Shown here: positions 3,113-62,973 of the stretch, piece after piece | Numbering within the stretch: position 1 is the stretch's first letter | How the letters are laid out: each line of letters opens with the position of its first letter | NCBI GenBank assembly: GCA_017477255.1 | Contig: JAFUXB010000002.1 | Location: forward strand, 93,996 to 157,995 | Direction of reading: 5' to 3' | Length of the DNA: 64,000 bases | Origin: Bacilli bacterium | GTDB lineage: Bacteria > Bacillota_I > Bacilli_A > RFN20 > CAG-826 | Made by a program: the position numbers and the translations under genes | The notes under the pieces: model-generated | What the model was told of the DNA's origin: nothing | Seen by the model: only the letters and a program-made list of their open reading frames with translations | Databases searched by the model: none

Positions 3113-3281
3113 TATGTCAATTGAACAAATGATGAAACGTATTGATGAGATTACTTTAAAGGTAAGTGATCCTAATATTTCACTTGAAGAAAGCATTAAA
3201 TTAGTCAAAGAAGCTAAAGAACTTATTGCAGAATGTGAAAAACGTTTAAATGAGTATAAGGAAGAAATAAAAGTAGATTAG
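3105..3281 (+). CDS. xseB: exodeoxyribonuclease VII small subunit (58 aa, below the ORF-track cutoff)
   Basis: The ATG at 3105 lies 8 nt after GGAGGA and overlaps the end of xseA. The translation is MNNMSIEQMMKRIDEITLKVSDPNISLEESIKLVKEAKELIAECEKRLNEYKEEIKVD. The TAG stop is at 3279-3281. Confidence 0.8.
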   Translation: MNNMSIEQMMKRIDEITLKVSDPNISLEESIKLVKEAKELIAECEKRLNEYKEEIKVD

Positions 3282-3317
3282 TAGTTTTCTAGTATATTAT
3301 TAGTAGTTAATAAGTAT
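3279..3317 (+). repeat. phased TAGTA-hexamer array A (4 units, 11-bp period)
   Basis: TAGTAG starts at 3279, TAGTAT at 3290, TAGTAG at 3301 and AAGTAT at 3312. The first unit contains the xseB stop codon. The last unit overlaps the dinB ATG. Confidence 0.85.
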
Positions 3318-6913: not shown

Positions 6914-7417
6914 ATGAAAAAAGAGATTATTTACAAAGTAGAGTACGATTTAAACAACAAAATTCAGAGTCAAATCGAATGGGCTGATAATTTTTTACGT
7001 AATTTTCAAATTGGAGATATTGAGCTAAAAGTTGGTCAAATTGTTTTATACAAAGAATTTTCGAAATATTTGAATATATTTTTGGGATTAAGATATGGAA
7101 TTGTTTTAGACAAAGAAATTGGCGATCAAAACAATGTGATTATTTGCCCATTAGAAATTGAGACCGTTGATAGAATTTATCCAAACGGAGTTGATATTGG
7201 AAGAATTTATGAGATAGCAAACGATAATACATGCTTGGCAATGGTCTCAAATATTAAAAAGATTTCATACATGGACATCACAAATGATGGCGAAATTTTA
7301 AATAAAAAAATCTATCTTCCTGATGAATCAGTGAAGATAATTGTCGACATTTATCGTAAATTTATGCTTAAAATCTGTGGAAAATATATCAACACTAAAA
7401 AAATTAACTATTCGTAA
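6914..7417 (+). CDS. hypothetical protein (orphan) with a possible PemK/MazF-like SH3-barrel pattern
   Basis: A 167-aa ORF with no Shine-Dalgarno, lying between the deoB terminator and the dif site. The pattern VGQIVLY...LRYGIVL...NVIICPL...TCLAMVSNIKKISYMDI resembles the MazF/PemK core. This was not verified. Confidence 0.55.
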   Translation: MKKEIIYKVEYDLNNKIQSQIEWADNFLRNFQIGDIELKVGQIVLYKEFSKYLNIFLGLRYGIVLDKEIGDQNNVIICPLEIETVDRIYPNGVDIGRIYEIANDNTCLAMVSNIKKISYMDITNDGEILNKKIYLPDESVKIIVDIYRKFMLKICGKYINTKKINYS

Positions 7418-7428
7418 AAAGTGCGTTT

Positions 7429-7445
7429 TAGTAGATTTTTAGTAG
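7429..7445 (+). repeat. phased TAGTAG array F (2 units)
   Basis: TAGTAG starts at 7429 and 7440, reading TAGTAGATTTTTAGTAGAT. Confidence 0.7.
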
Positions 7446-7546
7446 ATTTGAGTGTGGAAAACACTAAAGGAGTTTATGTGACTATTTTTATGTTTTTATT
7501 TTTTGAAGGTAAAAAATATCGATTAAATCGGTTTTCTAATGGTTTT

Positions 7547-7581: not shown

Positions 7582-7615
7582 TAAAAAAATAATTATCCAC
7601 AATTAATGGATAATT
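7582..7615 (-). terminator. terminator hairpin downstream of nadD-yqeK
   Basis: On the - strand AATTATCCA pairs with TGGATAATT around a 7-nt loop, followed by a T-rich run. The stem is AT-rich. Confidence 0.55.
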
Positions 7616-10701: not shown

Positions 10702-10740
10702 ATACTTAAAATATACTAATAATCTACTAATTAATTACTA
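10702..10740 (-). repeat. phased TAGTA-hexamer array C (4 units, 11-bp period)
   Basis: The + strand units ATACTT, ATACTA, CTACTA and TTACTA start at 10702, 10713, 10724 and 10735. On the - strand this reads TAGTAA-N5-TAGTAG-N5-TAGTAT-N5-AAGTAT-T-ATG(yqeG). Confidence 0.85.
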
Positions 10741-10747
10741 ATTGGAA

Positions 10748-13357: not shown

Positions 13358-15288
13358 TATTTAATAACCTCCTTAATAAATTCATCTTCTTCATTGAAAT
13401 CAATATTTTCTTCAACCCATTTCTTTCTTAAATCTGAGTTATTACCCATTAATGTTGAAATTTCTTTTGCAACATTTAAAGGATCATCGATATTAACTTT
13501 AATTAATAATCTATGACGTGGGTCCATTGTTGTATAACGTAATTGGTCTGGGTTCATTTCACCTAAACCTTTATATCTGTTAATTTTATAACCTCTACCC
13601 ACTTTTTCTTTACAAATTTCAAGTTCTCTATCATCCCAAGCATATTCTTGGATATAGCCACTACCTTGTTCTTTATATACTCTATATAAAGGAGGTACAG
13701 CAACATAAACATAACCATTAACAATTAATGGTCTCATATAATGATAGAAGAAAGTTAAAAGCAAAGTTTGAATGTGAGCTCCATCAGTATCAGCATCAGT
13801 CATGATAATGATTTTTCCATAATGTGAGTCTTCAATATCAAAATTTTGTCCATAACCAGCACCAATTGTGTTGATTAATGTACTAATTTCTTCATTTTTT
13901 AAGAGTTTATCGACTGAAATTGAATCAGTATTTAATGGTTTACCTCTTAAAGGAAGGATTGCTTGATATAAAGGATTTCTTCCTTTTTTAGCACTTCCAC
14001 CAGCTGAATCACCCTCAACGATGAAAAGTTCATTTTTAGAATAATCTTTTCCTTGAGCAGGTGTTAATTTATCACTTAAAAGCAAAGTTTCTTTTTGCTT
14101 TTTATTTTTTCTCATTTCATCTTTTGCTTTTCTTGCAGCAATTCTTGCAGCTTGGCTATCAATACATTTTTTAATTAAATTAACTGCAAATTCCTTATTT
14201 TCATTTAAAAAATAAGTAAATTGAGAATAAATTAAGTTATTTACTGCACTTAAAGCTTGAGGTGTTCCAAGTTTTCCTTTTGTTTGACCTTCAAATTCAA
14301 GAATACTTTCTGGCATTTTTACACTAATGATGGCAGTTAAACCTTCACGAATATCAGCACCTTCTAATTTTTCTTTTGATTTTAATAAATTATTAGATTC
14401 AGCAAAATCATTAACTGCTTTTGTAATACCAATTCTAAAACCAGTTTCGTGAGTTCCACCATCTCTAGTTCTAACGTTATTAACATAACTATAAATTGTT
14501 TCGTTATAATCGCCAGTACAATATTGAAAAGCAATTTCGATATCCATTGTATTTACTTTATCTTCAAAAGTAATTACAGGACCTAAACTATTTTTATTTG
14601 CGTTAATTGTTTCGATATATTCTTTTAAACCGTTTTCATAATAAAACTCAGTTTCTTGATTAGTTCTTTCATCTTTTAAAACAAATTTAACTTTTTTAAG
14701 TAAGAAAGCACTTTCTTGTAAGTGGGAAGCAATTGTGTCCCATTTAAAATCTACAGTTGAAAAAATCTTTTTATCTGGTTTAAAAGTAACCATTGATCCA
14801 TGTTTAGTTGTATTTCCTAAAACTTCTAATGGTACAGCTAAATTTCCATTATTTTCAAATCTAATGTGGTAAACTTTTTGATTTTTATATACGACTACAT
14901 CGCAGAATTCGCTTAAAGCATTGGTAACACTACTACCAACACCATGAAGACCACCACTAGATTTATAAGCATCTTCATTAAATTTACCACCACTATGTAA
15001 GGTAGTAAAAATAAGTTGTATTGCTGGGATTCCAGTACTTTTATGTATATCAACAGGGATTCCACGTCCTTCATCAATTACGGATAAGCTTCCATCTTTA
15101 CGAATAATAACTGTAATTTTATTACCAAAGCCATTTAAAGCTTCGTCAACAGCATTATCAACAATTTCCCATACTAAATGATGAAGTCCATATGCATTTG
15201 TACTTCCAATATACATACCAGGTCTTTTAATTACGCCTTGTAAACCTGTTAAATATTCAATATTACTTGCATTATATTCTTTATTCAT
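13357..15288 (-). CDS. parE: DNA topoisomerase IV subunit B
   Basis: A 643-aa GHKL ATPase plus TOPRIM protein (KRPGMYIGS, EGDSAGG, PLRGK). Its stop overlaps the parC start. Confidence 0.8.
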   Translation of the reverse strand: MNKEYNASNIEYLTGLQGVIKRPGMYIGSTNAYGLHHLVWEIVDNAVDEALNGFGNKITVIIRKDGSLSVIDEGRGIPVDIHKSTGIPAIQLIFTTLHSGGKFNEDAYKSSGGLHGVGSSVTNALSEFCDVVVYKNQKVYHIRFENNGNLAVPLEVLGNTTKHGSMVTFKPDKKIFSTVDFKWDTIASHLQESAFLLKKVKFVLKDERTNQETEFYYENGLKEYIETINANKNSLGPVITFEDKVNTMDIEIAFQYCTGDYNETIYSYVNNVRTRDGGTHETGFRIGITKAVNDFAESNNLLKSKEKLEGADIREGLTAIISVKMPESILEFEGQTKGKLGTPQALSAVNNLIYSQFTYFLNENKEFAVNLIKKCIDSQAARIAARKAKDEMRKNKKQKETLLLSDKLTPAQGKDYSKNELFIVEGDSAGGSAKKGRNPLYQAILPLRGKPLNTDSISVDKLLKNEEISTLINTIGAGYGQNFDIEDSHYGKIIIMTDADTDGAHIQTLLLTFFYHYMRPLIVNGYVYVAVPPLYRVYKEQGSGYIQEYAWDDRELEICKEKVGRGYKINRYKGLGEMNPDQLRYTTMDPRHRLLIKVNIDDPLNVAKEISTLMGNNSDLRKKWVEENIDFNEEDEFIKEVIK

Positions 15289-17096: not shown

Positions 17097-18134
17097 ATGG
17101 GACGTGTTAATACTAAGAAAATAAACATAGGAAATATTACTATTGGTGGAGAAAATAAGGTTTTAATCCAATCAATGTGTAATATAAAAACAAGCAATAT
17201 TAACGATGTTATCAAACAAATTAATGATTGCACTTTTTATGATGCTTCTTTAATGCGTGTTAGTGTTTTAGATTTTGAAGATGCTAAAGCAATTAAAGAA
17301 ATTGTTAAAAATATTAAAATTCCTTTAGTTGCTGATATTCATTTTAATTACAAATTAGCAATTGAAGCTATTAAAAACGGGGCTAAAAAAATTAGAATTA
17401 ATCCTGGAAATTTAACAAATTTAGACGAATTAAAAGAAATTATTAAATGTGCTAAAGAATATAAAGTTGCAATTCGAATTGGAATTAATTCTGGTTCTTT
17501 AAATAAAAAATATGTTGGTAACGATGAACCTGAGTATTTAAACTTAGTAAATTCGGCACTAGATTACATTAAAATCTTTGAAGAAAACGAATTCTTTGAT
17601 ATTGTAGTCAGTTTAAAAAGTTCTAATCCAATCGAAACTTTTAAAGCTTATACATATTTTGATTCAATATCAAACTACCCACTTCATATTGGTGTAACTG
17701 AATCTGGATTTGATGAGGTCGGAATTATTAGAAGCGTTTCAGCTTTATCACCACTTTTACTTAATGGAATCGGTGATACTATAAGAATTTCTTTAAGTGG
17801 AGATCCTATTAAGGAAGTTATAACTTGTAAAAGACTTTTACATGATTTAGGACTTTATCCAAATTATCCTACTATAATTTGTTGTCCTACTTGTGGAAGA
17901 TGCCAAGTTGATGTTAAACCTTTAGCTAAAAAAATACTTGATTACATGGAGCAAAATAACATTTATAAGACAGTTGCTGTAATGGGCTGTGTTGTAAATG
18001 GAATTGGTGAAGGGAAAAATGCTGATATTGGATTAGCTGGTGGAAACGGCTTCTTCATTTTATTTAAAAATGGTCAAGAAATAAAAAAAGTCTCACAAGA
18101 GGAGGCTTTTGATGAATTAATTAAATATCTTTAA
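17097..18134 (+). CDS. ispG: 4-hydroxy-3-methylbut-2-en-1-yl diphosphate synthase (MEP pathway)
   Basis: A 345-aa ORF with GcpE patterns (IGGENKVLIQSM, RINPGN, CPTCGR). TATAAT lies 7 nt before the ATG and there is no Shine-Dalgarno. Confidence 0.9.
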   Translation: MGRVNTKKINIGNITIGGENKVLIQSMCNIKTSNINDVIKQINDCTFYDASLMRVSVLDFEDAKAIKEIVKNIKIPLVADIHFNYKLAIEAIKNGAKKIRINPGNLTNLDELKEIIKCAKEYKVAIRIGINSGSLNKKYVGNDEPEYLNLVNSALDYIKIFEENEFFDIVVSLKSSNPIETFKAYTYFDSISNYPLHIGVTESGFDEVGIIRSVSALSPLLLNGIGDTIRISLSGDPIKEVITCKRLLHDLGLYPNYPTIICCPTCGRCQVDVKPLAKKILDYMEQNNIYKTVAVMGCVVNGIGEGKNADIGLAGGNGFFILFKNGQEIKKVSQEEAFDELIKYL

Positions 18135-19000
18135 CTTTTAAGAAGTAATTCAATTTCTTCTTTATAAGGTGGTTTTGAGTCAATGTAAGGAGTTTCTAAA
18201 ATCTTAGGAACTTCTTTTAATTTTGGATGGAAAATATATTTTTGAAGAGTCTTTAAACCAATAGTTCCTTTTCCAATATTTGCGTGTCTATCTTTATGAG
18301 CTCCAATTGGATTTTGACTATCATTAATATGTAAGACTTTAAGTTTTTCAAGACCTATAATTTTATCAAAATCATTTAAAATTGTTTCGATATCATCTAC
18401 ATTATAACCAGCATCATTAATATGACAAGTATCAAGACAAACACATATTCTTTCTGATTTTTTAACATGTGAAATTATATATGCAAGTTCTTCAAAAGTT
18501 CGACCAACTTCTCCACCCTTACCTGCCATTGTTTCAAGACAAATTAAAACATTGGAATCATCATCTTCTAAGACTAGATCTAAGCCTTCAACTACTCTTT
18601 TGCACCCAATTTCACTTCCAAGTCCTAAATGACTTCCTGGATGTAAAACTAATAATTTAAATCCTAACTCTGAAACTCTTTTAATTTCTTGCCTTAAAAA
18701 TGAGACTGCAAAATCAAATTTAGAGCTATCCACTGTATTAGCTAAATTTATTATATAAGGTGCGTGAACAACAATTTTATCAGAATTTATCGAATATTTT
18801 TTAAATAATTCTTTAGTTTCTTTAATCTTAAATCTACTTACAGGAATCCTTATTGTATTTTGTGGAGCTCCTGTATAAAACATAAAAGTGTTTGCACCAA
18901 AAGATAAAGCTTCTTTTGTTGCAGATAATAAATAATCTGGAGCGTTTAAGCTTACATGACTTCCAATATAAATATTGTTAATTGCTTCTTTGTTTTCCAT
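18131..19000 (-). CDS. nfo: endonuclease IV
   Basis: A 289-aa TIM-barrel AP endonuclease (HAPYIINL, LHPGS, CLDTCH, HINDS). Confidence 0.9.
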   Translation of the reverse strand: MENKEAINNIYIGSHVSLNAPDYLLSATKEALSFGANTFMFYTGAPQNTIRIPVSRFKIKETKELFKKYSINSDKIVVHAPYIINLANTVDSSKFDFAVSFLRQEIKRVSELGFKLLVLHPGSHLGLGSEIGCKRVVEGLDLVLEDDDSNVLICLETMAGKGGEVGRTFEELAYIISHVKKSERICVCLDTCHINDAGYNVDDIETILNDFDKIIGLEKLKVLHINDSQNPIGAHKDRHANIGKGTIGLKTLQKYIFHPKLKEVPKILETPYIDSKPPYKEEIELLLKS

Positions 19001-20285
19001 TTAATCTATAATGTCTAGTTTTTACTCTTTCAATTTCTTTTTTAACTTTCTTTTTATAGCCAGGTTTTACTTTATCTGATTTTGTTCTAGCTATTGCTTT
19101 TTTAATGTCTGTGTCTAATTTTGTATTAACTTTTTGAGATTTTCTTTCTTGTTTTAAAATTGGTTTATCTTCGATGAAATCGCCATTATTATATTTTAAG
19201 AATTTTGGTTTTAATCCATTTTCGATTAATTTTAAAACTAAATCTGTATGATCTAAATCATAAAAAACATATGAATTACCATCTTTAAAAATACGACCAG
19301 TTCTACCTGCTCTATGGTAATAATATTCAAGGTTTGTTGGGAGTTCTACGCTTAAAACATCGGTTACATCCAATAAATCTAGACCACGGCTAGCTATATC
19401 AGAACAAATAATGTATTGGAATTCATTGTTATTGATTCTTTTAAGCATTGCTTTTCTTTCTCTTGGTTGAAGATCACCTGAAATAATTCCGCATTTATAA
19501 CCAATTGAAGAAAGGTAATTATAGATTTCTTTAACTTTTACATTACTATTAGCAAAAATCATTAATAAATAAGGATTTTTAACTTTAATAAAATCTACGA
19601 TTAAATCGTTTATATTTCGATGTTTTGTGTTAACAAAATAGTGAGAAACTGTTTCTGAAGTTTGATTATTCTCTGATAAAGATAAAACGTAATCAGGTGA
19701 AATATATTTTCTTAAAAATACTTCAACTTGTTTTGAAATTGTTGCAGAAAATACTTCAATTTGTGGTGTATTAATCTTCGATATAATCGAATCAATTTCA
19801 TCAAGGAAAGTTTTATCAATAAGCATATCTGCTTCATCCAAAACAATAGTTTTTAATGATGAAAAATCGATTTGTAAAGTTTCAATTAAATATTTGAGTC
19901 TTCCGGGTGTAGCAATAATAATTTCACAGCCATTTTCCATCTTCTTTTTACTTCTAGAAGTATCAATGCCACTTGTAAAAAGTTTAGCTTCTAAATTTGG
20001 AAAATACTTTTTGAATTGAATAGTAAAATTGTAAGTTTGTTGTGCTAATTCTCTAGTTGGACTAATGATGATTGCTTGTAAGTTTTTATTAAACTCAAGG
20101 TTATTAATAATAGGTATCAAAAATGAATGAGTTTTGCCTGTTCCAGTCGCACTTTTAACGATAATATTTTCGTTTTTTAATGCTTTTGGAATGACAATTT
20201 CTTGAACTTTTGTAGCCTCAAAATATCCTAGATTATTTAAGGCTTCAATGACTTCTTTTTTAAGGTTAAATGCTGTAAAATTCAT
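18978..20285 (-). CDS. DEAD-box ATP-dependent RNA helicase (CshB/YqfR-like)
   Basis: Motifs are ATGTGKT, DEAD, SAT and HRAGRTGR. The gene is adjacent to nfo, as in Bacillus. Confidence 0.85.
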   Translation of the reverse strand: MNFTAFNLKKEVIEALNNLGYFEATKVQEIVIPKALKNENIIVKSATGTGKTHSFLIPIINNLEFNKNLQAIIISPTRELAQQTYNFTIQFKKYFPNLEAKLFTSGIDTSRSKKKMENGCEIIIATPGRLKYLIETLQIDFSSLKTIVLDEADMLIDKTFLDEIDSIISKINTPQIEVFSATISKQVEVFLRKYISPDYVLSLSENNQTSETVSHYFVNTKHRNINDLIVDFIKVKNPYLLMIFANSNVKVKEIYNYLSSIGYKCGIISGDLQPRERKAMLKRINNNEFQYIICSDIASRGLDLLDVTDVLSVELPTNLEYYYHRAGRTGRIFKDGNSYVFYDLDHTDLVLKLIENGLKPKFLKYNNGDFIEDKPILKQERKSQKVNTKLDTDIKKAIARTKSDKVKPGYKKKVKKEIERVKTRHYRLNGKQRSN

Positions 20286-20305
20286 TTTTAATTTCCACCG
20301 TTTAT

Positions 20306-20333
20306 ATACTAATAATATACTAAAAATCTACTA
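20306..20333 (-). repeat. phased TAGTA-hexamer array B (3 units)
   Basis: The + strand units ATACTA, ATACTA and CTACTA start at 20306, 20317 and 20328. The - strand reads TAGTAG-N5-TAGTAT-N5-TAGTAT. The first unit contains the nif3 TAG stop. The array shares the exact 16-mer TAGTATATTATTAGTA with array A. Confidence 0.85.
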
Positions 20334-21113
20334 ATTAATAACTTTAGGCAATTTTTCATGATCTACTTTAATAATTTGTAATTTTGGACAAATTTCTAGT
20401 AATTTTGCCTCCATTGCATGAATAAAAATCTTCTCAATTTCATGTGGCATATCTAAATAATTACACTTATAAGATACTACACCTCTTCTGCCATGATGAG
20501 GCATATCTCCACTAATATAAATGTCATAATTTTCGTCTTGAGCATCACGATAATGACCCCATCCTCCACCACCAACTATGGCTACTGATTTGACATTTTT
20601 CTTGCCATAATTAAGTAATAATGAATAATCAACTTCTAATTGTTTATTGGCGTATTTAGCAAACTCTTCACAAGTCATTTCTTTTTCTAAATAGCCACCT
20701 CTAGCCATTGGAACTTTTTCTAATGGTTTAATATCTTTTAAATTGAGTCTTTTAGCTAAAGCATCATTCATTCCATCTTTTCCTTCATCAAAATTTGTGT
20801 GGAATGAATAAATAGGAATGTTTTTTGCATCTATTTTATTGCATAGTGCTTCTTTATTTTGATCGTATTTAAATACTCTAGCTTTTGTACCATAAATAAA
20901 TGGATGATGAGTCATAATTAAGTCGATTTTATCGAATAAATTATTCTTTTCCATATAATTATAAACTTCTTCATCAAAATCTAAACACAAAAGAATTCTG
21001 GATGTATCTTCTTTTAAAACACCAGTCATATGACCTACATGATCATGATATTTTTTAGCTATTCTTTTAGGGTAATAATTAGCTAATGCTCTTAATAATT
21101 TCTTTGTGTTCAT
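20331..21113 (-). CDS. Nif3-family dinuclear metal centre protein (YqfO-like)
   Basis: A 260-aa ORF with an HHP motif, located downstream of trmK as in Bacillus. Confidence 0.8.
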   Translation of the reverse strand: MNTKKLLRALANYYPKRIAKKYHDHVGHMTGVLKEDTSRILLCLDFDEEVYNYMEKNNLFDKIDLIMTHHPFIYGTKARVFKYDQNKEALCNKIDAKNIPIYSFHTNFDEGKDGMNDALAKRLNLKDIKPLEKVPMARGGYLEKEMTCEEFAKYANKQLEVDYSLLLNYGKKNVKSVAIVGGGGWGHYRDAQDENYDIYISGDMPHHGRRGVVSYKCNYLDMPHEIEKIFIHAMEAKLLEICPKLQIIKVDHEKLPKVIN

Positions 21114-28637: not shown

Positions 28638-28668
28638 GGCTTAATTATAACAAAGTTATAATTTGATT

Positions 28669-32105: not shown

Positions 32106-33419
32106 CTATTTTTTTGACATTGTCAAAATTTTTACTGAATTTTCTTTGTTGAACTTAATTTTAACGATTTTATCGTTTAAATTATCTTCTGATTTAATTA
32201 AACATTCTAGATAATTTGATGAATGAGCTTTATATCCTTTTAGTTTTTCGTCATAAGATTCAACTAAAAATTCTACTTCTTCATTGTAAAATTTCTTTTC
32301 GTAATCTAGTTCCAATTCATTAGATAATGAAATTAGTCGTTTAACTCGTTCTTTTTTCACTTCTTGAGGAATTTTTCCATCCATTTTAGAAGCTACTGTT
32401 CCGTTTCTATCACTATATGGGAAAACATGAACTTTTGAAAAATTAATTTCTTTAATAAAGTTGTATGTTTCAACGAAATCTTCTTCACTTTCTTGAGGAA
32501 AACCTACGATTACATCTGTTGTAATTGAAATATCAGGTCTAATTTCACGAATTTTTCTTATTACTTCTTTAAAATAATCTAAATCATATTTACGGTTCAT
32601 GAGTTTTAGCACATGTTTACTTCCACTTTGTAAAGGAATATGTAAATGATTAGCGATATTACTATATTTAGAAAGTAATTTTAAGAACTTATCATCAATT
32701 TGACTTGTTTCAATCGAGGAAATTCTAATTCTATATAAATCCTTGTTATTTACTAAAATTGCTTCTAGAAGGTCTGAAAATGAGGATTTTGGGGTAAAAT
32801 CTTCCCCATAACTTCCTTGATCAATTCCTGTGAGGATTATTTCTTTGTAATTATTTTTAATTAAAGCTGAAATTTCAGATAAAATCTCATCTTTTTCTCT
32901 ACTTCTTGATCTTCCTCTAACATAAGGAATAAGGCAATATGTGCAATAATTATCGCAACCATCTTGTATTTTTACATATGCTCTAGTTTGGTCAAAATAA
33001 CGATTTAATGTAATATTTTCATATTTTTTAATATCTAAGAAATTATTATGAGTTACTATTTTATTGCGATTTACTAAGAAAGAATCGATATATTCTCCGA
33101 TTTTATCTCTATTACTTGTTCCAATTACAATATCAACACCTAAATCTTCGCTAAGAAATTTATATGAATATTGTGAATAACAGCCCATGACGCATAAAAC
33201 ACAGTTTGGATATTTGTTTTTAAAGTGTTTTATTGTCTTTTTTGACTTATTTGAGCTAGTTTCTGTGACTGCACATGTATTAATGATAACAACATCTGGA
33301 TTGTCATCTTCTTTAACTTCTATATAGCCTCTTTTTTGCAAATCAAAAGCAATAGCTTCGACTTCGTAGCTATTAACTTTACATCCTAAAAAGTGTATAT
33401 AAAAGGTTTTTTTATTCAT
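32106..33419 (-). CDS. mtaB: tRNA methylthiotransferase MtaB (radical SAM, MiaB family)
   Basis: Features are LGCKVNSYE, CDNYCTYC and a TRAM-like C-terminus, in the yqeV position. Confidence 0.8.
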   Translation of the reverse strand: MNKKTFYIHFLGCKVNSYEVEAIAFDLQKRGYIEVKEDDNPDVVIINTCAVTETSSNKSKKTIKHFKNKYPNCVLCVMGCYSQYSYKFLSEDLGVDIVIGTSNRDKIGEYIDSFLVNRNKIVTHNNFLDIKKYENITLNRYFDQTRAYVKIQDGCDNYCTYCLIPYVRGRSRSREKDEILSEISALIKNNYKEIILTGIDQGSYGEDFTPKSSFSDLLEAILVNNKDLYRIRISSIETSQIDDKFLKLLSKYSNIANHLHIPLQSGSKHVLKLMNRKYDLDYFKEVIRKIREIRPDISITTDVIVGFPQESEEDFVETYNFIKEINFSKVHVFPYSDRNGTVASKMDGKIPQEVKKERVKRLISLSNELELDYEKKFYNEEVEFLVESYDEKLKGYKAHSSNYLECLIKSEDNLNDKIVKIKFNKENSVKILTMSKK

Positions 33420-33819
33420 CTTCGTTTGCCTTTAATAACTCTTGAAAAACTGTATAACTAATGAATCCATTTTTGTATAAGGAATTAATTAGTTCATTTT
33501 TAGTAGATTTATAGTAGTTTTCAAGTATGTTTTGAAGTTTTACTTCTATCTGATCTGTATTAATCATCTTTAATTTTCTATCATACAAATAGAAAATGTG
33601 ATCAATATATAAATCGTTATTTACAATAAGCATAATGCATAAATTTTTATCATAGTATGCTTTAGTTGTCTTATCATTTCCAACATATAAAAGACTAGAA
33701 ACATTAGTCATTTTCTCTCCTTCTTTTTGCATATGCTCATAAGGACTATTAAATTTTTGAATGTTGTTTCTATATTTAGCTAATATTTTAAAAAATGTCT
33801 TATCCATATTAATTGTCAA
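33412..33819 (-). CDS. hypothetical protein (135 aa)
   Basis: The ORF overlaps both neighbours by a few nt, an operon-style arrangement. No motif was recognised. Confidence 0.5.
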   Translation of the reverse strand: MTINMDKTFFKILAKYRNNIQKFNSPYEHMQKEGEKMTNVSSLLYVGNDKTTKAYYDKNLCIMLIVNNDLYIDHIFYLYDRKLKMINTDQIEVKLQNILENYYKSTKNELINSLYKNGFISYTVFQELLKANEDE

Positions 33820-36242: not shown

Positions 36243-38665
<2,423 letters not shown>

Positions 38666-39735: not shown

Positions 39736-39762
39736 TTAGCACTGTCAACTAAAAAGTGCTAA
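39736..39762 (-). promoter_or_regulatory. CIRCE operator (distal copy)
   Basis: The sequence is TTAGCACTG-N9-AAGTGCTAA. Confidence 0.8.
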
Positions 39763-40628: not shown

Positions 40629-40635
40629 AGTTAAT

Positions 40636-40663
40636 TAGTAGTTTTTCAGTAGATATTTAGTAA
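40636..40663 (+). repeat. phased TAGTA-hexamer array G (3 units), inverted relative to the flanking genes
   Basis: TAGTAG starts at 40636, CAGTAG at 40647 and TAGTAA at 40658. The array fills the 36-nt hemW-PHP spacer. Confidence 0.8.
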
Positions 40664-42009: not shown

Positions 42010-43383
42010 TTATCCTTTCTTAACTGGAGTGTAGATATATTTATTTTTAAGTGGTTCTTTTCTATAGAATCCTAAATATACTAATGTATCCATGCTTGTA
42101 CGGGCAGTTTCATAAGCACAGCCTAATTCTCTCTTAAATTGAGCAATTGTGTATTTCATGCCAATTGTACAATGTCTTGCATAGAAATAAGCTTGAGCTC
42201 TAGATAATTCTGGATGTAATTCAAGCAAATGAGTTTCTAATTTATTTGCTTCTTCTTCATTTAATCCATCTGGAACTTCAGATATAGCAATATTTTTGTT
42301 GTAATTGACGTTTGAATCATCAATTTTTTCAACATATCTTTCAACAACCTTAATTTCTTCTTTTGGTTCTTCATTTGATACTTGATTAACAACAGGTTCA
42401 GTTGAATATGTTTCTTCAGCAATTTCATCTACTTTTGATGAACTTAAGATTTCATTTAAATCTTCGATGCAATGCTCAAATTTCTTTAATATATAGTTTA
42501 AGAAATAAGTTAAATCTAAAGTTTTTTGGCTTTCCAAAATAAAGCTTTCAAATTGTTCTTTTTCAAGTAATAAACTTTCAGCATTTAAATAGATTGCTAA
42601 TTCACCAAGATCATTACGTGCAAGTATTTCTTTAAATAATAAGACGCTCATTTCTTCACTAAATGCTTCGAATGGAACGACATAATAGAAATAATAAAGA
42701 GCACATGTTGCTTTAACAAATAATGAATTAGTGCTAGTTTCCAAGAAATTGAATAACGAATCCATTGAAGATTCAATTGTATTACTTGGAACACCTAAAT
42801 AAAGTTTATTAATAACTACTTTATTTAATGAATTTTCAATTTCAGTAGTTCTATAAAATTCAGTTAAATCATCAGTTCCTAATAATGAACTATAAGTTAA
42901 ACCTAGAAATTCATCTTTTAAGCTACAATCATAGTTTTTAGCTAAATTTTTAATTGTTCTAAAGTATTTATTTAATAACATTGCTTCTGGTGAAAGTAAG
43001 CTAATGTCTTCACTAATTATTCTATCAATTGTTGCGCTATCAACATTGATTTTATATTTTTGAGCAACCGTTCTTAAAATTCTATTTAAAGCTCTTGATT
43101 CAAAATTATGTTTACCATTTCTGCCGAGTTTAGTGTAATTAAGTAAAATTTTAATTAATTTTCTATCAATTTGGTTAACTCTTTCATTGATTGAAGGTGC
43201 TAAACATACACTATAATTTGAATTATTAACATGCTTTAAACTTAAAACGACTTGGAAATTACTTCTGTATTCTAAAACTTGATCCCAAATATTATCAACA
43301 ATTGGGACTTTCATTTGTCTAATGACATCTTGCTTTGTGGCATACATGTCGTTAGTAAATCTTGCGCCTATATTGTTTGCCAT
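42010..43383 (-). CDS. hypothetical protein (457 aa), possibly a degenerate Fic-like core plus a C-terminal winged helix
   Basis: It has its own promoter and a GAGGT ribosome-binding site. The segment VVPFEAFSEEMSVLLFKEIL lies where a Fic HxFx(D/E)GNGRxxR motif would be, but it lacks the catalytic residues. The C-terminus looks like a winged helix-turn-helix. This was not verified. Confidence 0.5.
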   Translation of the reverse strand: MANNIGARFTNDMYATKQDVIRQMKVPIVDNIWDQVLEYRSNFQVVLSLKHVNNSNYSVCLAPSINERVNQIDRKLIKILLNYTKLGRNGKHNFESRALNRILRTVAQKYKINVDSATIDRIISEDISLLSPEAMLLNKYFRTIKNLAKNYDCSLKDEFLGLTYSSLLGTDDLTEFYRTTEIENSLNKVVINKLYLGVPSNTIESSMDSLFNFLETSTNSLFVKATCALYYFYYVVPFEAFSEEMSVLLFKEILARNDLGELAIYLNAESLLLEKEQFESFILESQKTLDLTYFLNYILKKFEHCIEDLNEILSSSKVDEIAEETYSTEPVVNQVSNEEPKEEIKVVERYVEKIDDSNVNYNKNIAISEVPDGLNEEEANKLETHLLELHPELSRAQAYFYARHCTIGMKYTIAQFKRELGCAYETARTSMDTLVYLGFYRKEPLKNKYIYTPVKKG

Positions 43384-43403: not shown

Positions 43404-43431
43404 ATTATATAATTATTTCATTTCTTTGCAA
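43404..43431 (-). promoter_or_regulatory. sigma-70-type promoter for the 457-aa gene
   Basis: The - strand reads TTGCAA, a 16-nt spacer, then TATAAT. Confidence 0.6.
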
Positions 43432-43438
43432 TATTGAA

Positions 43439-43466
43439 CTACTAAAAAAATACTAAATAATTACTA
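43439..43466 (-). repeat. phased TAGTA-hexamer array D (3 units, possibly a 4th degenerate unit)
   Basis: The + strand units CTACTA, ATACTA and TTACTA start at 43439, 43450 and 43461, with CTATCA at 43472. The array lies just upstream of the -35 box of the promoter at 43404-43431. Confidence 0.8.
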
Positions 43467-43489
43467 AAAAACTATCACTTTTTTTGCAT

Positions 43490-43541: not shown

Positions 43542-43928
43542 TTAATAACGCATTGATGCTGCTAAAACGCCTGTAGCAATTAAAACTCCGTAGATAATTC
43601 CGACGACAACACTAATGGCAACTTCAACAACAAATCCGATGATAGCGCCTTTTTTGAGCTTTGGTTTATTGATTACTAATCCAATAATAAGACCTATTAA
43701 ACCAAGGAAGAATCCTAAGCAGAAACCACCAGCAAATGAACCTTCATCAACATAAACTGGTTGTCTTGGTGCTTGATTTAAATCTTCTCCTCTATTAATT
43801 GGATTATTTGCAGCTTCATCTAAAGCTGCAGTTTTTTCTGCAGGACTTAATTTGTACCCACATTTTGGACAAGCATCTAATTGGCTTGACATAACGCTTT
43901 TACATTCTGGACATCTAATTAAAGCCAT
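43542..43928 (-). CDS. zinc-ribbon membrane protein
   Basis: The N-terminus is CPECK...CPKCG. The C-terminus has two glycine-rich transmembrane helices. Confidence 0.6.
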   Translation of the reverse strand: MALIRCPECKSVMSSQLDACPKCGYKLSPAEKTAALDEAANNPINRGEDLNQAPRQPVYVDEGSFAGGFCLGFFLGLIGLIIGLVINKPKLKKGAIIGFVVEVAISVVVGIIYGVLIATGVLAASMRY

Positions 43929-58627: not shown

Positions 58628-58825
58628 AAAATAAAAAAGAATTAGATAGGAACGAATTTCTCCGCGGTACCATCCTAATTCTTATTTCTAAGCTCTTAAT
58701 TTTATACTTTAACGCAGTATTTACGAATATTTCTATTAATTCAAGGAAATGGCTCATATTTTCTTTCTTTATGCTTTCACCAACCGCATTTTCTCTAAGT
58801 AGAAATCCAATAATTCTTTTTCCAG
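58628..58825 (-). promoter_or_regulatory. T-box riboswitch leader of alaS
   Basis: The - strand leader contains AGAGA and GGTGAAAG stem-I elements. The T-box sequence AGGATGGTACCGCG is at 58663-58676. A terminator (AGAATTAGGAT paired with ATCTAATTCT, then T6) competes with the T-box. A candidate Ala specifier GCC lies at 58751-58753. Confidence 0.8.
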
Positions 58826-58830
58826 GAAAT

Positions 58831-58858
58831 ATTATATTAAATAATATTTAAATTTCAA
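58831..58858 (-). promoter_or_regulatory. promoter of the alaS T-box leader
   Basis: The - strand reads TTGAAA, a 16-nt spacer, then TATAAT. It lies directly after the stop of the upstream lipoprotein gene. Confidence 0.65.
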
Positions 58859-58866
58859 CAAGTTAT

Positions 58867-61800
58867 TTAGTCGTTTTCAAACATATCTGCGACATTTGGT
58901 GGGTCTAAGTGATATGTTGCAAGAGCTAAATAATCAAGTTCTTTTAACGATTGTTTACCATTACCACAACGGACAAGATTGTTAAAATCGACGTAATAAT
59001 AAGTTCCATTAACAGTAATTTTGCTTAATGACATTATTTTATTAAGTTTTAATTTGCCATCAACTTCTCTGTCATATGTTTCTAAAATTGGTTCATTTTC
59101 TAATTGAACAAGTTTATAAACACCTTCTTCTTCGATAATTACATAATATCTGTTACCTTTTGTAATGTATCTATAACCTAAATATTCATCATCACCTTCA
59201 GGTAATAAATTCTTTAATCCTTCGCCATCTAAATCATCTTTAACAAATTGAACACCACCGTTTTTAACGAATATATTAGCAATATATTCTTCTCCGGTTT
59301 GTTCGATTATAGCGAAGTTACGTTGATAATCAGTTGAATCTAATAATTCAACAAATTCAAATCCATAAGTGTCTGCGCTATTAAAATATTTGCATCTTTC
59401 CCAAGCATTTCTTGAAGTATAAGCATATTTTGTTGATGATGTTTGAATAATTACACCTTTTTCTATTGCTTCTGAGTTAAATGCAACCCAAGCCCCATCT
59501 TTTTTAATAAATACATAAGAAATTCCAGTTTCTTCAAGCGAAGTTGCAATTCCTCTTTCTGTAATTTCACTATCAATTTCATGAAGTGTTCCTAAATTAT
59601 CAACGATATGTAAGTGTACAATTGTTCCAACTTTATCGTAGATAATGTGTCTAGATGCATCATAATCATGAACAGCAACAAAAATTGGATCTTTATAGAA
59701 CAATGTTTTACTATAATTTTCTTTTATATATGAAGCATTGACAGGTAAGGACTGAGAAACAGGATAAGCAATAATATATCCGTTTTCAAATTGATGACAA
59801 TAAGTCCATTCATGACCAATATTTAAATTGTCATAATGATATGTTTTTCCATCTATTTTTGCTTTAAAGATCAATTTTTCGCCTGATAAAAGAGTTCCTT
59901 CTACTAATCTTGAAGTTCCATCTTCTTCGTTTTTAACCATAATATAACGTTTAGTTTCATCAGCACTCTTGTAAGTGTGGAATGAATCTTCAGTTGAAAC
60001 TGTAGCCCAGTTTCCTGTGTCTTCTAAGAAATAATGATCAGTTAAAGTTTCAAATGATTTAATTGTTGTTGTATAAATACCAGTTGTTACATCAGTTCCA
60101 CCAACAATAGCAATCCAAGCTTCATCACCAGTTTTTGTTGCTATAGTTGTGTTGTCTTCAAGATTGAAGATTGTTACAACATCTCCTACATAGTTATATG
60201 CATAACCTTCTTCAAATCGATAATATGCTAATTTATTTGTTTCATCATAAATTTTAAGTTCTGCATCAACTGTATATTGAATCTGATATTCGTCACCAAT
60301 AAATGCGCCTTCATCAATTGAAATTGTAGGAATAATATTTGTTTTATTTGCTATATTATAAACACTACTATAAGCTGAAGCACTTGATGCATAAATTGGA
60401 CCAGAAAATGCGATATCATCATCACAACTTAATTCTCCAGCAACAACTAATCTACCACTATTTGTACTTAAATTCGTTAAATTAGTAGCATTATGTTCAC
60501 TTGCAGTTGCTGGATAAACAACAAAGTTTTTATTTAATATAAGCTCGCCTAAATCAATTACATTTAATGTACCACCATTTAAAATTTTAACTGGGATATT
60601 GAGCTCTAATTGACCATAAACTAATACATCTAATTTTGCATTTGCGATTGGGAAATACATGTTTTCTGTATTAACAAAATTATTACCGTTTTTAACGAAT
60701 AATTCGATCTTATTTAAAGAATAATTTCCACCAATAATTATTTCTTCTTTTGTTCCATTATATAAAATAGAAAATACATCTGTTGTATCTTTTGAGACAT
60801 ACAAAGCATTTACGTTTTCTTTTGAAGTAACAAAATAAAATTGATTATTATAGAAGTTAACACTATCATCACTTCTTGATTCTTTTGCGATTAGATCGCC
60901 ATTATGCATCACTACTATTTCTTTAACATCAAAATCTAAGAATGAATAATAATGGTATGGGAAATCATTATTAAATGCTTTTGCTTCGTAATTATCATAA
61001 GAATAATTATCTGAAGTAACATAATTTCCTTTTAATGTTCCGCCATCTTGAACATAAATTTTTCCTGTTTTTGCTGCGCTTGAGTCAAAAATTCTACCAT
61101 TACAATCAAGAACACCACCACTTGAAATAGTTAAAATATGTCCATTTAAATCGATTGAACCGTATTTATTTACTACTTTACCAACATCATTTTCATCTTG
61201 ACCAATAATGCCACCAACAATAACATTACCTTCAATTGCTAAGTCACTGCTTAACTTAAATGTAAGGTAATTTTGTAAAGCTGGTTCATTAATACTATAT
61301 TCTCTATATCTACTAATCTCTGGGCCTAAAATCTCACTAGAAATCATTGTTTTTGAATGTGGGACATATAATGTTTTTCCTGCAGGAATCACACCTAAAT
61401 CACCGTTTTCAAAGACATTATTTGAAGGTAAATCCATCATAAATAAAGGATTTATCGAATTAACTTGTGCAAATCCTTCTTGTAAATTTTCAACTTTTGG
61501 ATTATCAAAAGTTTTAACAAATTTAACACTATCTGCTAATGGATTAGCAAAATTAATATCAAAATAAGGGAAGTTTGAAACGTTTTTGTTTTCAAATCTT
61601 TCAAAATAAACTGCATCATTTATAGTTGAGTTTTCAAACGGACCGTTAATTGTAATTTTTGCACCTTCTTTAAATGGATGATCAAATTCTACAATAGTTC
61701 CATAAATATTGAAAATATCGATTGGTTCGGCAGTATAAGGAATTAATACTCTATTTAAATTAGTTAAATTAGATAATGAAGATAAGCATAATTTTTTAAT

Positions 61801-62775
61801 TGTGCTTGGTAATTCAACTTCGGTAAGATTTTCACATTTATTAAACGCAAAAATACTTAATTCAGTTATTCCTTCATTTAAAACTATATTTTTAATCTCA
61901 TGTGAAGCTGATTTGACAGGCGCTTCACCTTCTTCTTGTTCAATAATTCCTTCGAGTAAATCGTCAAATAATCCAATTGGACCTACAACGACCTCTTTTC
62001 CATTAAAAGTACCTGGGAATTCAAGTGTATCTGGTAAAGCTTGAGTTCCATCAAGTAAGTTAACTTTATCGTAAACATCGACTAAATTCTTATAAAAATC
62101 TAGCTTAATTGGCAAATCATCCATGTTCAATTTAGCATCAATTATGGAGTAAATATCACGTTTTAAAATTGCTGTATATTTTCCGGTATAATCGATTTTA
62201 AATTGATTTAAGATGTCTTCACTAACGTCTTTTACATCAATATCGTATTTGAAATCTTTTATATAATAAAAAGTAGGGTCGTAATTTTCAACAGTTGCGT
62301 TAGCATCTAAAGCACCATCTTTAGTAAATTTTGAATAAACATTTACCTTTTTATCGAAAGTTTTTGCAGCACTTGTATCCTTAACTAAAACTAAAGGCAA
62401 ATCCTTTAAAATGTTGATTGGATCTTTAAAAACTTCTGGAAGTTCGAATTCACCATTTGTTAAATCGAATTTAACATCATAATTAGGAATATCTACATAA
62501 TATTCTTCTGTTTCACTAAACGAAAATGTTTGGAAATTGATAATTCCAAGGTATTCATAGTCAGTTAAAGAGTTAAAAACAACACCTTTTAAAACTGAAC
62601 TATCAAAATACCATGCATGATAATCTTGATTTTCTGCAATATGGTTGTTTTGTCTTAATTTTTTGTAATAGCTTAAAGCTTCATTTACAAATTCTTGATT
62701 AACATTATGTCTGCCGCAACCTGTTAAGCAGGTAAGTGCCAATGCTGTTAAAAGAAATAGTCTACTTTTTTTCAT
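58867..62775 (-). CDS. large surface lipoprotein (1302 aa) with BspA-type leucine-rich repeats and a beta-helix-like region
   Basis: I place the start at MKKSRLFLLTALALTCLTGCG (62775), which has a lipobox. An LRR-like segment is ITELSIFAFNKCENLTEVELPSTIKKL...LTNLNRVLIP. A Gly/Asn-rich repetitive segment is GNVIVGGIIGQ...LNGHILTISSGGVLDCNG. Confidence 0.7.
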   Translation of the reverse strand: MKKSRLFLLTALALTCLTGCGRHNVNQEFVNEALSYYKKLRQNNHIAENQDYHAWYFDSSVLKGVVFNSLTDYEYLGIINFQTFSFSETEEYYVDIPNYDVKFDLTNGEFELPEVFKDPINILKDLPLVLVKDTSAAKTFDKKVNVYSKFTKDGALDANATVENYDPTFYYIKDFKYDIDVKDVSEDILNQFKIDYTGKYTAILKRDIYSIIDAKLNMDDLPIKLDFYKNLVDVYDKVNLLDGTQALPDTLEFPGTFNGKEVVVGPIGLFDDLLEGIIEQEEGEAPVKSASHEIKNIVLNEGITELSIFAFNKCENLTEVELPSTIKKLCLSSLSNLTNLNRVLIPYTAEPIDIFNIYGTIVEFDHPFKEGAKITINGPFENSTINDAVYFERFENKNVSNFPYFDINFANPLADSVKFVKTFDNPKVENLQEGFAQVNSINPLFMMDLPSNNVFENGDLGVIPAGKTLYVPHSKTMISSEILGPEISRYREYSINEPALQNYLTFKLSSDLAIEGNVIVGGIIGQDENDVGKVVNKYGSIDLNGHILTISSGGVLDCNGRIFDSSAAKTGKIYVQDGGTLKGNYVTSDNYSYDNYEAKAFNNDFPYHYYSFLDFDVKEIVVMHNGDLIAKESRSDDSVNFYNNQFYFVTSKENVNALYVSKDTTDVFSILYNGTKEEIIIGGNYSLNKIELFVKNGNNFVNTENMYFPIANAKLDVLVYGQLELNIPVKILNGGTLNVIDLGELILNKNFVVYPATASEHNATNLTNLSTNSGRLVVAGELSCDDDIAFSGPIYASSASAYSSVYNIANKTNIIPTISIDEGAFIGDEYQIQYTVDAELKIYDETNKLAYYRFEEGYAYNYVGDVVTIFNLEDNTTIATKTGDEAWIAIVGGTDVTTGIYTTTIKSFETLTDHYFLEDTGNWATVSTEDSFHTYKSADETKRYIMVKNEEDGTSRLVEGTLLSGEKLIFKAKIDGKTYHYDNLNIGHEWTYCHQFENGYIIAYPVSQSLPVNASYIKENYSKTLFYKDPIFVAVHDYDASRHIIYDKVGTIVHLHIVDNLGTLHEIDSEITERGIATSLEETGISYVFIKKDGAWVAFNSEAIEKGVIIQTSSTKYAYTSRNAWERCKYFNSADTYGFEFVELLDSTDYQRNFAIIEQTGEEYIANIFVKNGGVQFVKDDLDGEGLKNLLPEGDDEYLGYRYITKGNRYYVIIEEEGVYKLVQLENEPILETYDREVDGKLKLNKIMSLSKITVNGTYYYVDFNNLVRCGNGKQSLKELDYLALATYHLDPPNVADMFEND

Positions 62776-62781
62776 ATTAAA

Positions 62782-62810
62782 ATTATAAATTTTAAAAAAG
62801 ATTAATTCAA
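62782..62810 (-). promoter_or_regulatory. promoter positioned for a leaderless transcript of the large lipoprotein gene
   Basis: The - strand reads TTGAAT (62805-62810), a 17-nt spacer, TATAAT (62782-62787), 6 nt, then ATG. No Shine-Dalgarno is present. Confidence 0.6.
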
Positions 62811-62855
62811 GCAATATTGATAGACCTTAAAACTTTTATTTTTATTAATTTTTTG

Positions 62856-62894
62856 TAGTATATTGTTAGTAGTTTTTTAGTAGTTTTTTAGTAG
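62856..62894 (+). repeat. phased TAGTA-hexamer array E (4 units, exact 11-bp period)
   Basis: TAGTAT starts at 62856, and TAGTAG at 62867, 62878 and 62889, with T5 spacers. Confidence 0.9.
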
Positions 62895-62918: not shown

Positions 62919-62973
62919 GGGCTTTGCATATGTTTTCAAAAAAATAGCTGGGGTTTGCATATGTTTTTGAAAT
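62919..62973 (+). promoter_or_regulatory. direct repeat pair upstream of ackA
   Basis: The 14-mer TTTGCATATGTTTT is exact at 62923-62936 and 62954-62967, a 31-bp offset. Each copy is preceded by a G-run. A second pair, ATTATCGTTT, lies at 62992-63001 and 63035-63044. Confidence 0.55.

Follow-up and report, generated by a model that had tools for sequence, protein, structure and literature searches.

What are short direct repeats doing, at an exact helical spacing, in the gaps between unrelated genes? The question is raised by a 64,000-nucleotide stretch of a Bacilli bacterium genome (contig JAFUXB010000002.1, positions 93,996 to 157,995; hereafter the window), in which a first-pass annotation made from the letters alone had noticed TAGTAD hexamers repeated every 11 bp at seven loci, among them the spacer ahead of ackA at 62856. 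We found that these arrays are non-random and rigidly phased, that they are gene-end elements and that, with TTAGTA as their core, they make up a genuine, conserved and apparently undescribed family of cis-elements.

Counts in the window were compared with dinucleotide-preserving shuffles, and 246 kb of related loci that had not been selected for the motif served as an unbiased set. The phased pair TAGTAD-N5-TAGTAD matched 13 times in the window against 0.21 expected (the largest value in any shuffle was 1), so the annotation's concern that the pair might simply reflect base composition can be set aside. The phased triple TAGTA-N6-TAGTA-N6-TAGTA occurred six times against 0.00 expected, whilst the lone TAGTAD hexamer was not enriched (141 against 133.5). 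As the single hexamer occurs at its expected frequency, the signal of the arrays lies wholly in their phasing. Same-strand distances between TAGTA pentamers in the window were 11 bp in 13 cases, 22 bp in seven, and never 10 or 12 bp; in the unbiased loci 32 chains had a period of 11, and other periods from 8 to 14 gave 0–3. Inverted TAGTA/TACTA pairs showed no enrichment in the window. With one mismatch per unit allowed, the window held seven arrays of at least three units and one array of two:

62855–62894, plus strand: four-unit array, with units GTAGTAT, TTAGTAG, TTAGTAG and TTAGTAG separated by ATTG, TTTT and TTTT.
3278–3317, plus strand: four-unit array filling the xseB–dinB junction.
7428–7445, plus strand: two-unit array, 11 nt past the stop of open reading frame (ORF) 6914–7417.
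10702–10741, minus strand: four-unit array filling the 47-nt junction between parC and a yqeG-family gene.
20306–20334, minus strand: three-unit array at the NIF3–cshA junction, with the NIF3 stop TAG as unit 1.
33489–33528, plus strand: degenerate four-unit array with two perfect units (33501/33512), inside ORF 33412–33819 (minus strand) and antisense to it.
40635–40663, plus strand: three-unit array, middle unit TCAGTAG, filling the 36-nt hemW–PHP junction.
43439–43467, minus strand: three-unit array, after a terminator hairpin (43521–43497) and before the promoter of a gene for a predicted Fic-fold protein.

All seven loci of the first-pass annotation were found in place, and it had rightly put five of its seven arrays on the strand of the downstream gene. 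Not every unit it listed is a perfect hexamer (3312 and 10702 read AAGTAT, and 40647 reads CAGTAG), nor are all spacers at the 62856 locus T5, the first being ATTGT. The statement that no phased pair lies inside a coding sequence (CDS) has to be given up, since an eighth pair, 33501/33512, had been missed within a called ORF of 135 amino acids, to which it is antisense; the status of this array is uncertain, and a single phased pair could be chance.

At xseB–dinB, unit 1 contains the xseB stop TAG (3279–3281) and the degenerate unit 4 (TAAGTAT) is overlapped by the ATG of dinB (3316), which has no Shine-Dalgarno sequence. The degenerate unit 4 of the 10702–10741 array, also TAAGTAT, stops 1 nt before the ATG of the yqeG-family gene, again one without a Shine-Dalgarno sequence. 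The 40635–40663 array is antisense to both the hemW and PHP genes, and that at 62855–62894 sits in a divergent-promoter context, in the spacer between a BspA-type leucine-rich-repeat gene (58867–62814, minus strand) and ackA (from 63098, plus strand). The two-unit array at 7428–7445 is orthologous to arrays downstream of deoB in L087 and L102 (L numbers denote loci of the comparison set); a small hairpin after it contains the DnaA-box-like TGTGGAAAA (7453–7461), and a perfect TTATCCACA lies further downstream (7593–7601). Neither of the array-adjacent ORFs 6914–7417 (167 amino acids) and 33412–33819 had a significant family match, the sole match listed for the latter being DUF3685 at E = 0.087, below its cut-off.

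A profile over 136 units read W-W-T-T-A-G-T-A-D-W-T-W-W-(T), with the G of the core and the T that follows it invariant and C nearly absent. The unit is TTAGTA, a non-C base and a 4-nt A/T spacer at an 11-bp period, and not the TAGTAD hexamer first proposed, the conserved core being one base longer at its 5′ end. Arrays hold two to five units, usually three; perfect units in the unbiased loci numbered two in 16 cases, three in 13 and four in three, and arrays conserved between species typically have three. Some 80 % of inter-core segments carry an in-phase, A-tract-type AnTm run of at least four bases, which makes some intrinsic bending, as raised in the annotation, plausible, but the conserved part of the unit is the G-containing core and not the tracts. 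RNA folding of the arrays gave no predicted structure (−0.8 to −5.4 kcal/mol, z-scores −0.8 to +0.6). No Rfam family covered any array and literature searches on TTAGTA/TAGTAG direct repeats returned nothing relevant, in agreement with the annotation, which could match the arrays to no described repeat family. With TAG on one strand of TTAGTA and TAA on its complement, arrays close nearly all six reading frames: 5–6 of the 6 were closed within 29 nt by 26 of 27 arrays, compared with 11 % of control intergenic 29-mers.

The unbiased set contained 27 arrays of at least three units, or one per 9.1 kb. Most were intergenic (22 of 27, where noncoding DNA makes up at most ~10 % of the sequence; p ~5e-18). 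The remaining five lay in CDSs, all antisense to the host gene, and such antisense arrays inside CDSs can have 3–4 perfect units. Where the upstream gene was identifiable, 20 of the 22 intergenic arrays shared its strand, and 15 started within −3 to +7 nt of its stop. Unit 1 is itself the stop codon of xseB, NIF3, glyS, deoC and, in L059 and L109, the upstream gene; at plsY this coupling to the stop is kept although the intergenic region measures 100–240 nt. When orientation was counted by independent orthologous groups, ~20 were sense and seven antisense to the upstream gene (~74 %, p = 0.02); antisense arrays in spacers between tandem genes were seen at window position 40636 and in L063, L078, L080 and L082. 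About 10 array contexts were convergent and three divergent. What follows an array is an intrinsic terminator (about half of cases), a start codon within 1–26 nt or a canonical promoter, and the next genes, when close, often have no Shine-Dalgarno sequence. Terminator hairpins follow the plsY arrays of L134–L140, L071 and L109, and arrays in L010, L011, L044 and L059; a hairpin also precedes the array at 13103 in L139. No common distance from array to −10 element was found across non-orthologous arrays, the only constant one being within a single orthologous promoter.

Relatives were sampled through syntenic loci gathered via hemW, NIF3 and a 457-amino-acid protein discussed below, as well as through a pattern scan that took one genome per species and whose statements hold among the matches listed. 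Positional conservation in relatives, which the annotation had left to be checked, was found at orthologous sites in up to 10 species. An array lies 1–4 nt past the plsY stop, ahead of a terminator, in nine species; between lepA and the Fic-like gene in the 10 species whose sequence extends through the promoter (an array downstream of lepA is present in L102 too, but not anchored); at the glyS–dnaG junction in five; downstream of NIF3 in eight; and downstream of deoB in three. A hemW-based metagenome scan returned seven loci at no more than 51 % identity, three of which carry the orthologous array. The NIF3–cshA array is kept in L098 and L136 and is degenerate in L134, and in L135, L137, L138 and L139 the equivalent NIF3 array lies within the CDS of an ispH gene inserted in opposite orientation; identity of the flanking NIF3 protein is only 56–69 % among these loci, whose G+C content is 27–38.5 %. 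Where glyS and dnaG overlap, in the window and in L134–L139, their junction array is missing, and arrays have been both gained and lost.

Pairwise identity between orthologues in four sets was 0.89–0.98 for TTAGTA, 0.42–0.52 for the spacers and 0.20–0.34 for position 7, an identity of ~50 % in the spacers being the random level for A/T-only sequence. Because the core is conserved while the spacers are random, this pattern indicates purifying selection restricted to the core and the phase.

Several further observations were made at these junctions. The ispH gene stands in opposite orientation between NIF3 and cshA in L135 (10767–11633), L137, L138 and L139, and is absent from this position in the window (20286–20330), L134 and L136. 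In L135 and L137, a leaderless cshA mRNA is suggested by a TAAAAT −10 element that lies 6–7 nt upstream of the ATG and by the lack of a Shine-Dalgarno sequence. The cshA gene is split (169 + 194 amino acids) in L001 (10829–12136), a 242-kb ENA scaffold; since the window (18978–20285) and three further contigs from this species have it intact with 435 amino acids, the split points to a difference of strain or assembly. Ahead of dnaG in relatives, arrays are followed by a palindrome, TATAAY-N3-RTTATA, with a covarying C..G or T..A pair. Its sites are:

L050, L084, L090 and L092 (two sites in the last): palindrome following arrays.
28646–28660 of the window: a copy standing alone between a peptidase C39 gene and ybeY.

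The pattern scan gave, among the matches listed, two coherent groups and scattered perfect tandem repeats. Window-like arrays were carried by AT-rich Bacilli, Erysipelotrichaceae and 'Mollicutes' metagenome-assembled genomes (MAGs), and, as far as these sequences go, the family is clade-wide in uncultured AT-rich gut and rumen Bacilli. Two-unit phased pairs also occur inside CDSs (the 3′ end of era, comEC and a TM2 protein gene), at the following places:

L136, 4103–4119: in-CDS pair.
L137, 4058–4074: in-CDS pair.
L261–L263, ~3019–3068 and ~18120–18154: in-CDS pairs.

These are kept between close relatives, probably through conservation of the protein, and two-unit matches with no other support should for that reason not be counted as arrays.

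Bacteroidales, Paludibacteraceae and Prevotella MAGs (G+C content 44–54 %) hold three to nine near-perfect tandem 11-mers, TTAGTAGGTGA or TTAGTATGTGA. Among the matches listed, such tandems were found in L006, L008, L012, L019, L043, L105 and ~30 other loci. The Bacteroidales and Paludibacteraceae tandems read TTAGTAKGTGA, lie in long non-coding regions in many copies per genome and often have a Bacteroidetes-type promoter box (TAnnTTTG; TAccTTTG) 15–25 nt upstream of them; they are probably a separate, transcribed repeat family. In a viral scan, most matches were perfect tandem or iteron-like repeats with G/C-containing spacers. The viral contigs L144, L167, L190, L249, L196, L220, L236 and L240 have TTAGTA cores at 11 bp (e.g. 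GTTAGTAACACGTTAGTAACAAATTAGTAAC), and these G/C-spacer arrays look like phage operator or iteron arrays unrelated to the family in the window. A few low-GC phage contigs hold the same composites as the window family, that is, an array with a promoter or an array with a terminator.

If a protein reads these arrays, the best candidate in the window is encoded next to one of them:

42010–43383, minus strand: candidate binder gene, 457 amino acids, predicted Fic fold with a C-terminal winged helix-turn-helix (wHTH).
43404–43431, minus strand: sigma-70-type promoter of this gene, with −35 TTGCAA (43431–43426), a 16-nt spacer and −10 TATAAT (43409–43404).

From the end of the 43439–43467 array it is 7 bp to the −35 of this promoter and 29 nt to its −10. 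When the orthologous promoters were anchored on the −10, the last TTAGTA core lay 29–30 nt away in 10 species, between which the protein is only 32–59 % identical. The protein itself had no Pfam or NCBIfam match, and no Pfam Fic match even at E = 10; at least 687 unnamed proteins from similar MAGs make up its family. An AlphaFold2 model from 25 sequences (pLDDT 82) had as its top Foldseek matches the Fic proteins with C-terminal wHTH 8CIL (Coxiella Fic2), 4RGL and SoFic (3ZCN/3EQX), and also 7CB8 (E = 1e-7 to 1e-5), and phmmer against 4RGL gave E = 6e-4. The modelled wHTH comprises helices at 395–404, 413–420 and 424–436, then a beta-hairpin at 440–453, and most of the invariant alignment columns, at 391–453, fall in this domain. 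At the site of the catalytic motif HxFx(D/E)GNGRxxR the alignment shows VPFEAFSEEMSV in place of the expected HPFxDGNGRxxR, with KPFExYSEE as the consensus of the family. The product is predicted from the model to be a clade-specific, inactive Fic + winged-helix protein and, with the catalytic motif lost, would be a pure DNA-binding pseudoenzyme.

Known Fic-HTH proteins bind DNA, and one of them, Yersinia CccR, represses its own promoter (PMC10628234), which parallels the in-register array upstream of the candidate's own promoter. CccR and Coxiella CbFic2 (8CIL) have the same fold and domain order as the candidate, which differs in having no catalytic motif and in that its DNA binding is a prediction. 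Autoregulation through the in-register array is a circumstantial reading, as the same array is also the after-stop array of lepA. To our knowledge, no Fic-HTH protein has phased direct-repeat arrays or genome-wide sites. In L261–L263 the array by this gene is the sole array of at least three units in 21 kb, and L128 has neither the candidate protein nor arrays.

Our preferred explanation, to which we give a probability of roughly 0.45, is cooperative head-to-tail binding of protein on the array DNA, with the inactive Fic + winged-helix protein as the candidate. A sequence-specific protein would bind the TTAGTA cores cooperatively on one face of the helix, one core per turn of 11 bp. This binder would be the product of 42010–43383, which may regulate itself through the array held in fixed register just before its −35. 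In the rest of the genome, at about one site per 9 kb, it would sit at transcription-unit boundaries, each bound site lying flush with the upstream stop, and a terminator, a start codon or a promoter coming next. Binding there could modulate transcription over the junction: read-through might be attenuated or blocked, or the promoter that follows might be tuned. Proteins on one face of double-stranded DNA typically show a spacing held strictly to the helical repeat, and we rank DNA-level binding first because of this rigid spacing, the arrays that lie after terminators, antisense to genes or inside CDSs, and the fixed −10 register; the arrays' want of structure as RNA also favours action as DNA. 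Protein binding at all, the identity of the binder and the effect on transcription are what we infer from these patterns.

Several points weigh against this explanation. The ~74 % sense bias (20 against 7) and the coupling to stops would suit a role in RNA or translation better. A DNA roadblock looks superfluous where an array lies between a stop and a good intrinsic terminator, as many do, and the array downstream of lepA may be an ordinary after-stop array. The usual number of three units is odd for dimeric winged-helix binders, and candidates for the binder were drawn from the visible part of the genome only. A fuller version of the explanation, which we regard as doubtful, would have the dead Fic-fold wHTH protein act as a clade-wide, global boundary factor that polymerises head to tail on stop-flush arrays, regulates its own gene and insulates or attenuates neighbouring units, an undescribed form of punctuation in compact genomes.

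The main rival to DNA-level binding places the action of the arrays in RNA or translation, with UUAGUA repeats, just past the stop in a 3′ untranslated region or between cistrons, offering a landing place to an oligomeric factor for RNA binding, termination or decay, or with the array acting as a stop cassette; we consider it unlikely. The sharing of the upstream strand by 20 of 22 intergenic arrays, the 15 that start within −3 to +7 nt of the stop, the stop codons that themselves form unit 1 and the terminator hairpin that commonly comes next are all what a transcript-borne element would show. The NIF3-sense array persists even inside the convergent ispH CDS, the unit number is usually three, and the arrays are C-free and unstructured as RNA. 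A stop cassette in particular would account for the closure of 5–6 of 6 frames by 26 of 27 arrays against 11 % of controls, the 11-nt period rotating the frames; yet TTAG with any period that is not a multiple of three would do for this, whereas six core positions and 11 nt are kept, and off-frame stops are already plentiful at 28 % GC. About one-fifth of arrays are antisense, post-terminator, in divergent promoters or in CDSs, where no sense transcript is expected, and an RNA element of the upstream gene leaves the −10 register kept in 10 species unexplained.

Operators of OmpR/PhoB/WalR-type response regulators, serving one regulon, were the comparison drawn in the first-pass annotation. The likeness is in the layout: PhoP, WalR and CiaR boxes share the hexamer-N5 direct repeat with A/T spacers (TTAACA-N5, TGTWAH-N5 and TTTAAG-N5, respectively), set head to tail at a period of 10–11 bp, as the arrays are at 11 bp, and the array in fixed register at the promoter of the Fic-like gene lies in the upstream-activator zone. 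The arrays differ in their core, in having ~3 units, in their anchoring to gene ends and in their density of ~1 per 9 kb, which implies ~150–200 sites per genome, beside unrelated housekeeping genes. They are anchored to upstream stops, with ~10 convergent against three divergent contexts, and share no distance to a −10 element; the usual three units do not make up the pairs of two or four half-sites that such operators have. No response regulator was seen among the ~48 window ORFs scanned, and regulators of this family consist of a receiver and Trans_reg_C, whereas the candidate binder has a Fic fold. We consider this reading improbable. What stands of the annotation's comparison is the operator layout and the winged-helix fold class; the regulator family and the promoter-centred role are not supported.

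Similarly poor prospects attach to the possibility that the arrays need no dedicated protein and act as intrinsic DNA structure or promoter, that is, as a bend, a UP-like element or a weak sigma-70 promoter giving short-leader transcripts. The in-phase AnTm runs of at least four bases in 80 % of inter-core segments would fit a bend, but it is the G-containing core that is conserved and the A/T tracts that are at random identity. Units 1 and 3 give TTAGTA-17 nt-TAGTAT, which matches −35/−10 spacing, and the absence of a Shine-Dalgarno sequence from dinB, the yqeG-family gene and, in relatives, dnaG would suit transcripts with short leaders, as would the leaderless cshA promoters in L135 and L137. 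The T at −7 is critical in a −10 element, however, and position 7 of the unit is T in only 31 % of cases and G in 42 %, so that the resemblance of TAGTAT to a −10 hexamer, raised in the annotation, is weak. Many arrays directly precede terminators or sit between convergent genes, and the clear promoters are separate, canonical ones.

Association with DnaA, through interrupted DnaA-trios or low-affinity arrays nucleated by an adjacent box, is very improbable. DnaA-box-like 9-mers (TGTGGATAA, TGTGGAAAA and TGTGAATAA) follow some arrays at 0–35 nt on the same strand:

L138 (~14024–14032), L139, L140, L109, L087, L102, L044, L077 and the window array at 7429: arrays with a DnaA-box-like 9-mer.

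Some of these 9-mers lie within the loop or stem of a hairpin preceding a T-run. Perfect boxes are rare, with seven in 295 kb, three of them within 160 nt of an array, and the polarity, with the box first and CTA repeats after it along one strand, is that of the basal unwinding system (PMC8287927). DnaA-trios consist of at least three contiguous NAN (3′-GAT-5′) triplets within 16 bp of a box (PMC8287927). The arrays share the TAG (3′-GAT-5′) triplet and, in some cases, the adjoining box-like 9-mer with the same polarity, but they contain at most two TAG triplets per unit with a 5-nt break, and 11 mod 3 = 2 breaks the triplet register. The box-like 9-mer follows only ~9 of ~60 arrays, amounting to 2–3 orthologous loci, and the window has no excess of box-like sequences (20, with 21.6 expected). 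Trios are contiguous and belong to a single origin, whereas the arrays are non-contiguous, mostly boxless and spread over eight places in 64 kb and dozens of loci, and it is ackA, not dnaA, that follows the 62856 array. An origin reading was accordingly rejected on triplet register, box rarity and number of loci.

Neutral or selfish, functionless microsatellite-like duplications seeded at stops are hardly credible despite the tandem 11-bp units, the gain and loss of arrays between lineages (e.g. the glyS–dnaG array) and the sporadic perfect TTAGTA-containing tandems in unrelated taxa and viruses, for the units are not copies of each other, the same sites are kept in up to 10 species, arrays are retained even in CDSs, and core identity of 0.89–0.98 beside random spacers (0.42–0.52) excludes a neutral microsatellite.

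Other systems resemble the arrays in part. Rok of Bacillus subtilis is a winged-helix minor-groove binder that prefers TACTA and AACTA (PMC6212790), and the TAGTA core is the reverse complement of its top pentamer TACTA, an identity of sequence only. Both sites are A/T-rich, with flexible TpA steps on either side of a single central G:C pair. Rok sites do not form phased arrays, and Rok is confined to the B. subtilis group. Genomes with this xenogeneic silencer deplete the motif from their resident core, so that it is concentrated in foreign A+T-rich islands, whereas here it is not depleted (TAGTAD 141 against 133.5) and the arrays flank housekeeping genes, so that membership is unsupported; the likeness may serve as a lead on how an A/T-rich site is read, not as evidence of membership. 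ParR on the 11-bp parC iterons of plasmid R1, omega on its heptads and MetJ on metboxes bind cooperatively, with unit number tuning affinity. These too are short, rigid direct repeats, in R1 with the same 11-bp period, but they belong to single plasmid loci or small regulons, unlike arrays at chromosomal gene ends about once per 9 kb. The REP/BIME elements of enterobacteria are, like the arrays, abundant, intergenic and situated just past stops in 3′ untranslated regions; they are imperfect hairpin palindromes, whereas the arrays consist of direct repeats that lack C and are predicted to be unstructured.

The window has 28 % GC, uses the standard genetic code and shows a Firmicute-type gene order (dnaG-sigA-trmK-NIF3-cshA; lepA-hemW-hrcA-grpE-dnaK-dnaJ; parE-parC, then the yqeG operon). 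Its proteins occur in metagenome assemblies, and the nearest database relatives, some labelled Erysipelotrichaceae or Erysipelotrichia, have NIF3 at most 69 % identical. Genetic code 4, with TGA as Trp, had been hinted at by the gap before the 3279 array and by a split dnaK; it was rejected, as table 11 leaves the long ORFs intact, and the gap is accounted for by xseB. In-frame TGA is essentially absent, with a single case among ~21,000 codons, which falls on a conserved Arg of DnaK. It lies at 37692–37694 (minus strand) in dnaK (36243–38084), at the Arg of YFNDAQ(R)QATKDAG; elsewhere in the window TGA is only a rare stop, and dnaK is called as 613 amino acids on the ENA contig. The TGA may reflect a nonsense mutation or recoding, or it may be an error of assembly. 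A tRNA search of the window found none.

Regulatory elements of known kinds were also seen in the window. A T-box leader at 58645–58838 (minus strand) lies upstream of alaS (74.5 bits, E = 2e-15); it was missed in the default scan because its score is below the Rfam gathering score of 93. A canonical CIRCE inverted repeat, TTAGCACT-N11-AGTGCTAA, is present at 39736–39762 upstream of hrcA, which indicates that classical HrcA control is present. Two copies of TTTGCATATGTTTT lie upstream of ackA (62923–62936 and 62954–62967), and the reverse complement resembles a CcpA cre site. In B. subtilis, ackA has two cre sites upstream, and by this analogy the TTTGCATATGTTTT pair fits them. The 128-amino-acid zinc-ribbon protein encoded at 43542–43928 is membrane-protein-like.

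For these organisms, the arrays bear on how genes are separated. Many junctions in these Bacilli have neither a hairpin terminator nor a Shine-Dalgarno sequence, and if the arrays are protein-bound boundary elements, they would show how uncultured gut and rumen Bacilli punctuate very compact operons. If true, the proposal would also provide a first function for at least 687 unannotated proteins, in which the fold of the Fic enzymes would have been turned into a DNA-binding factor. The motif is in addition an easy marker of gene ends and operon boundaries for the annotation of these MAGs.

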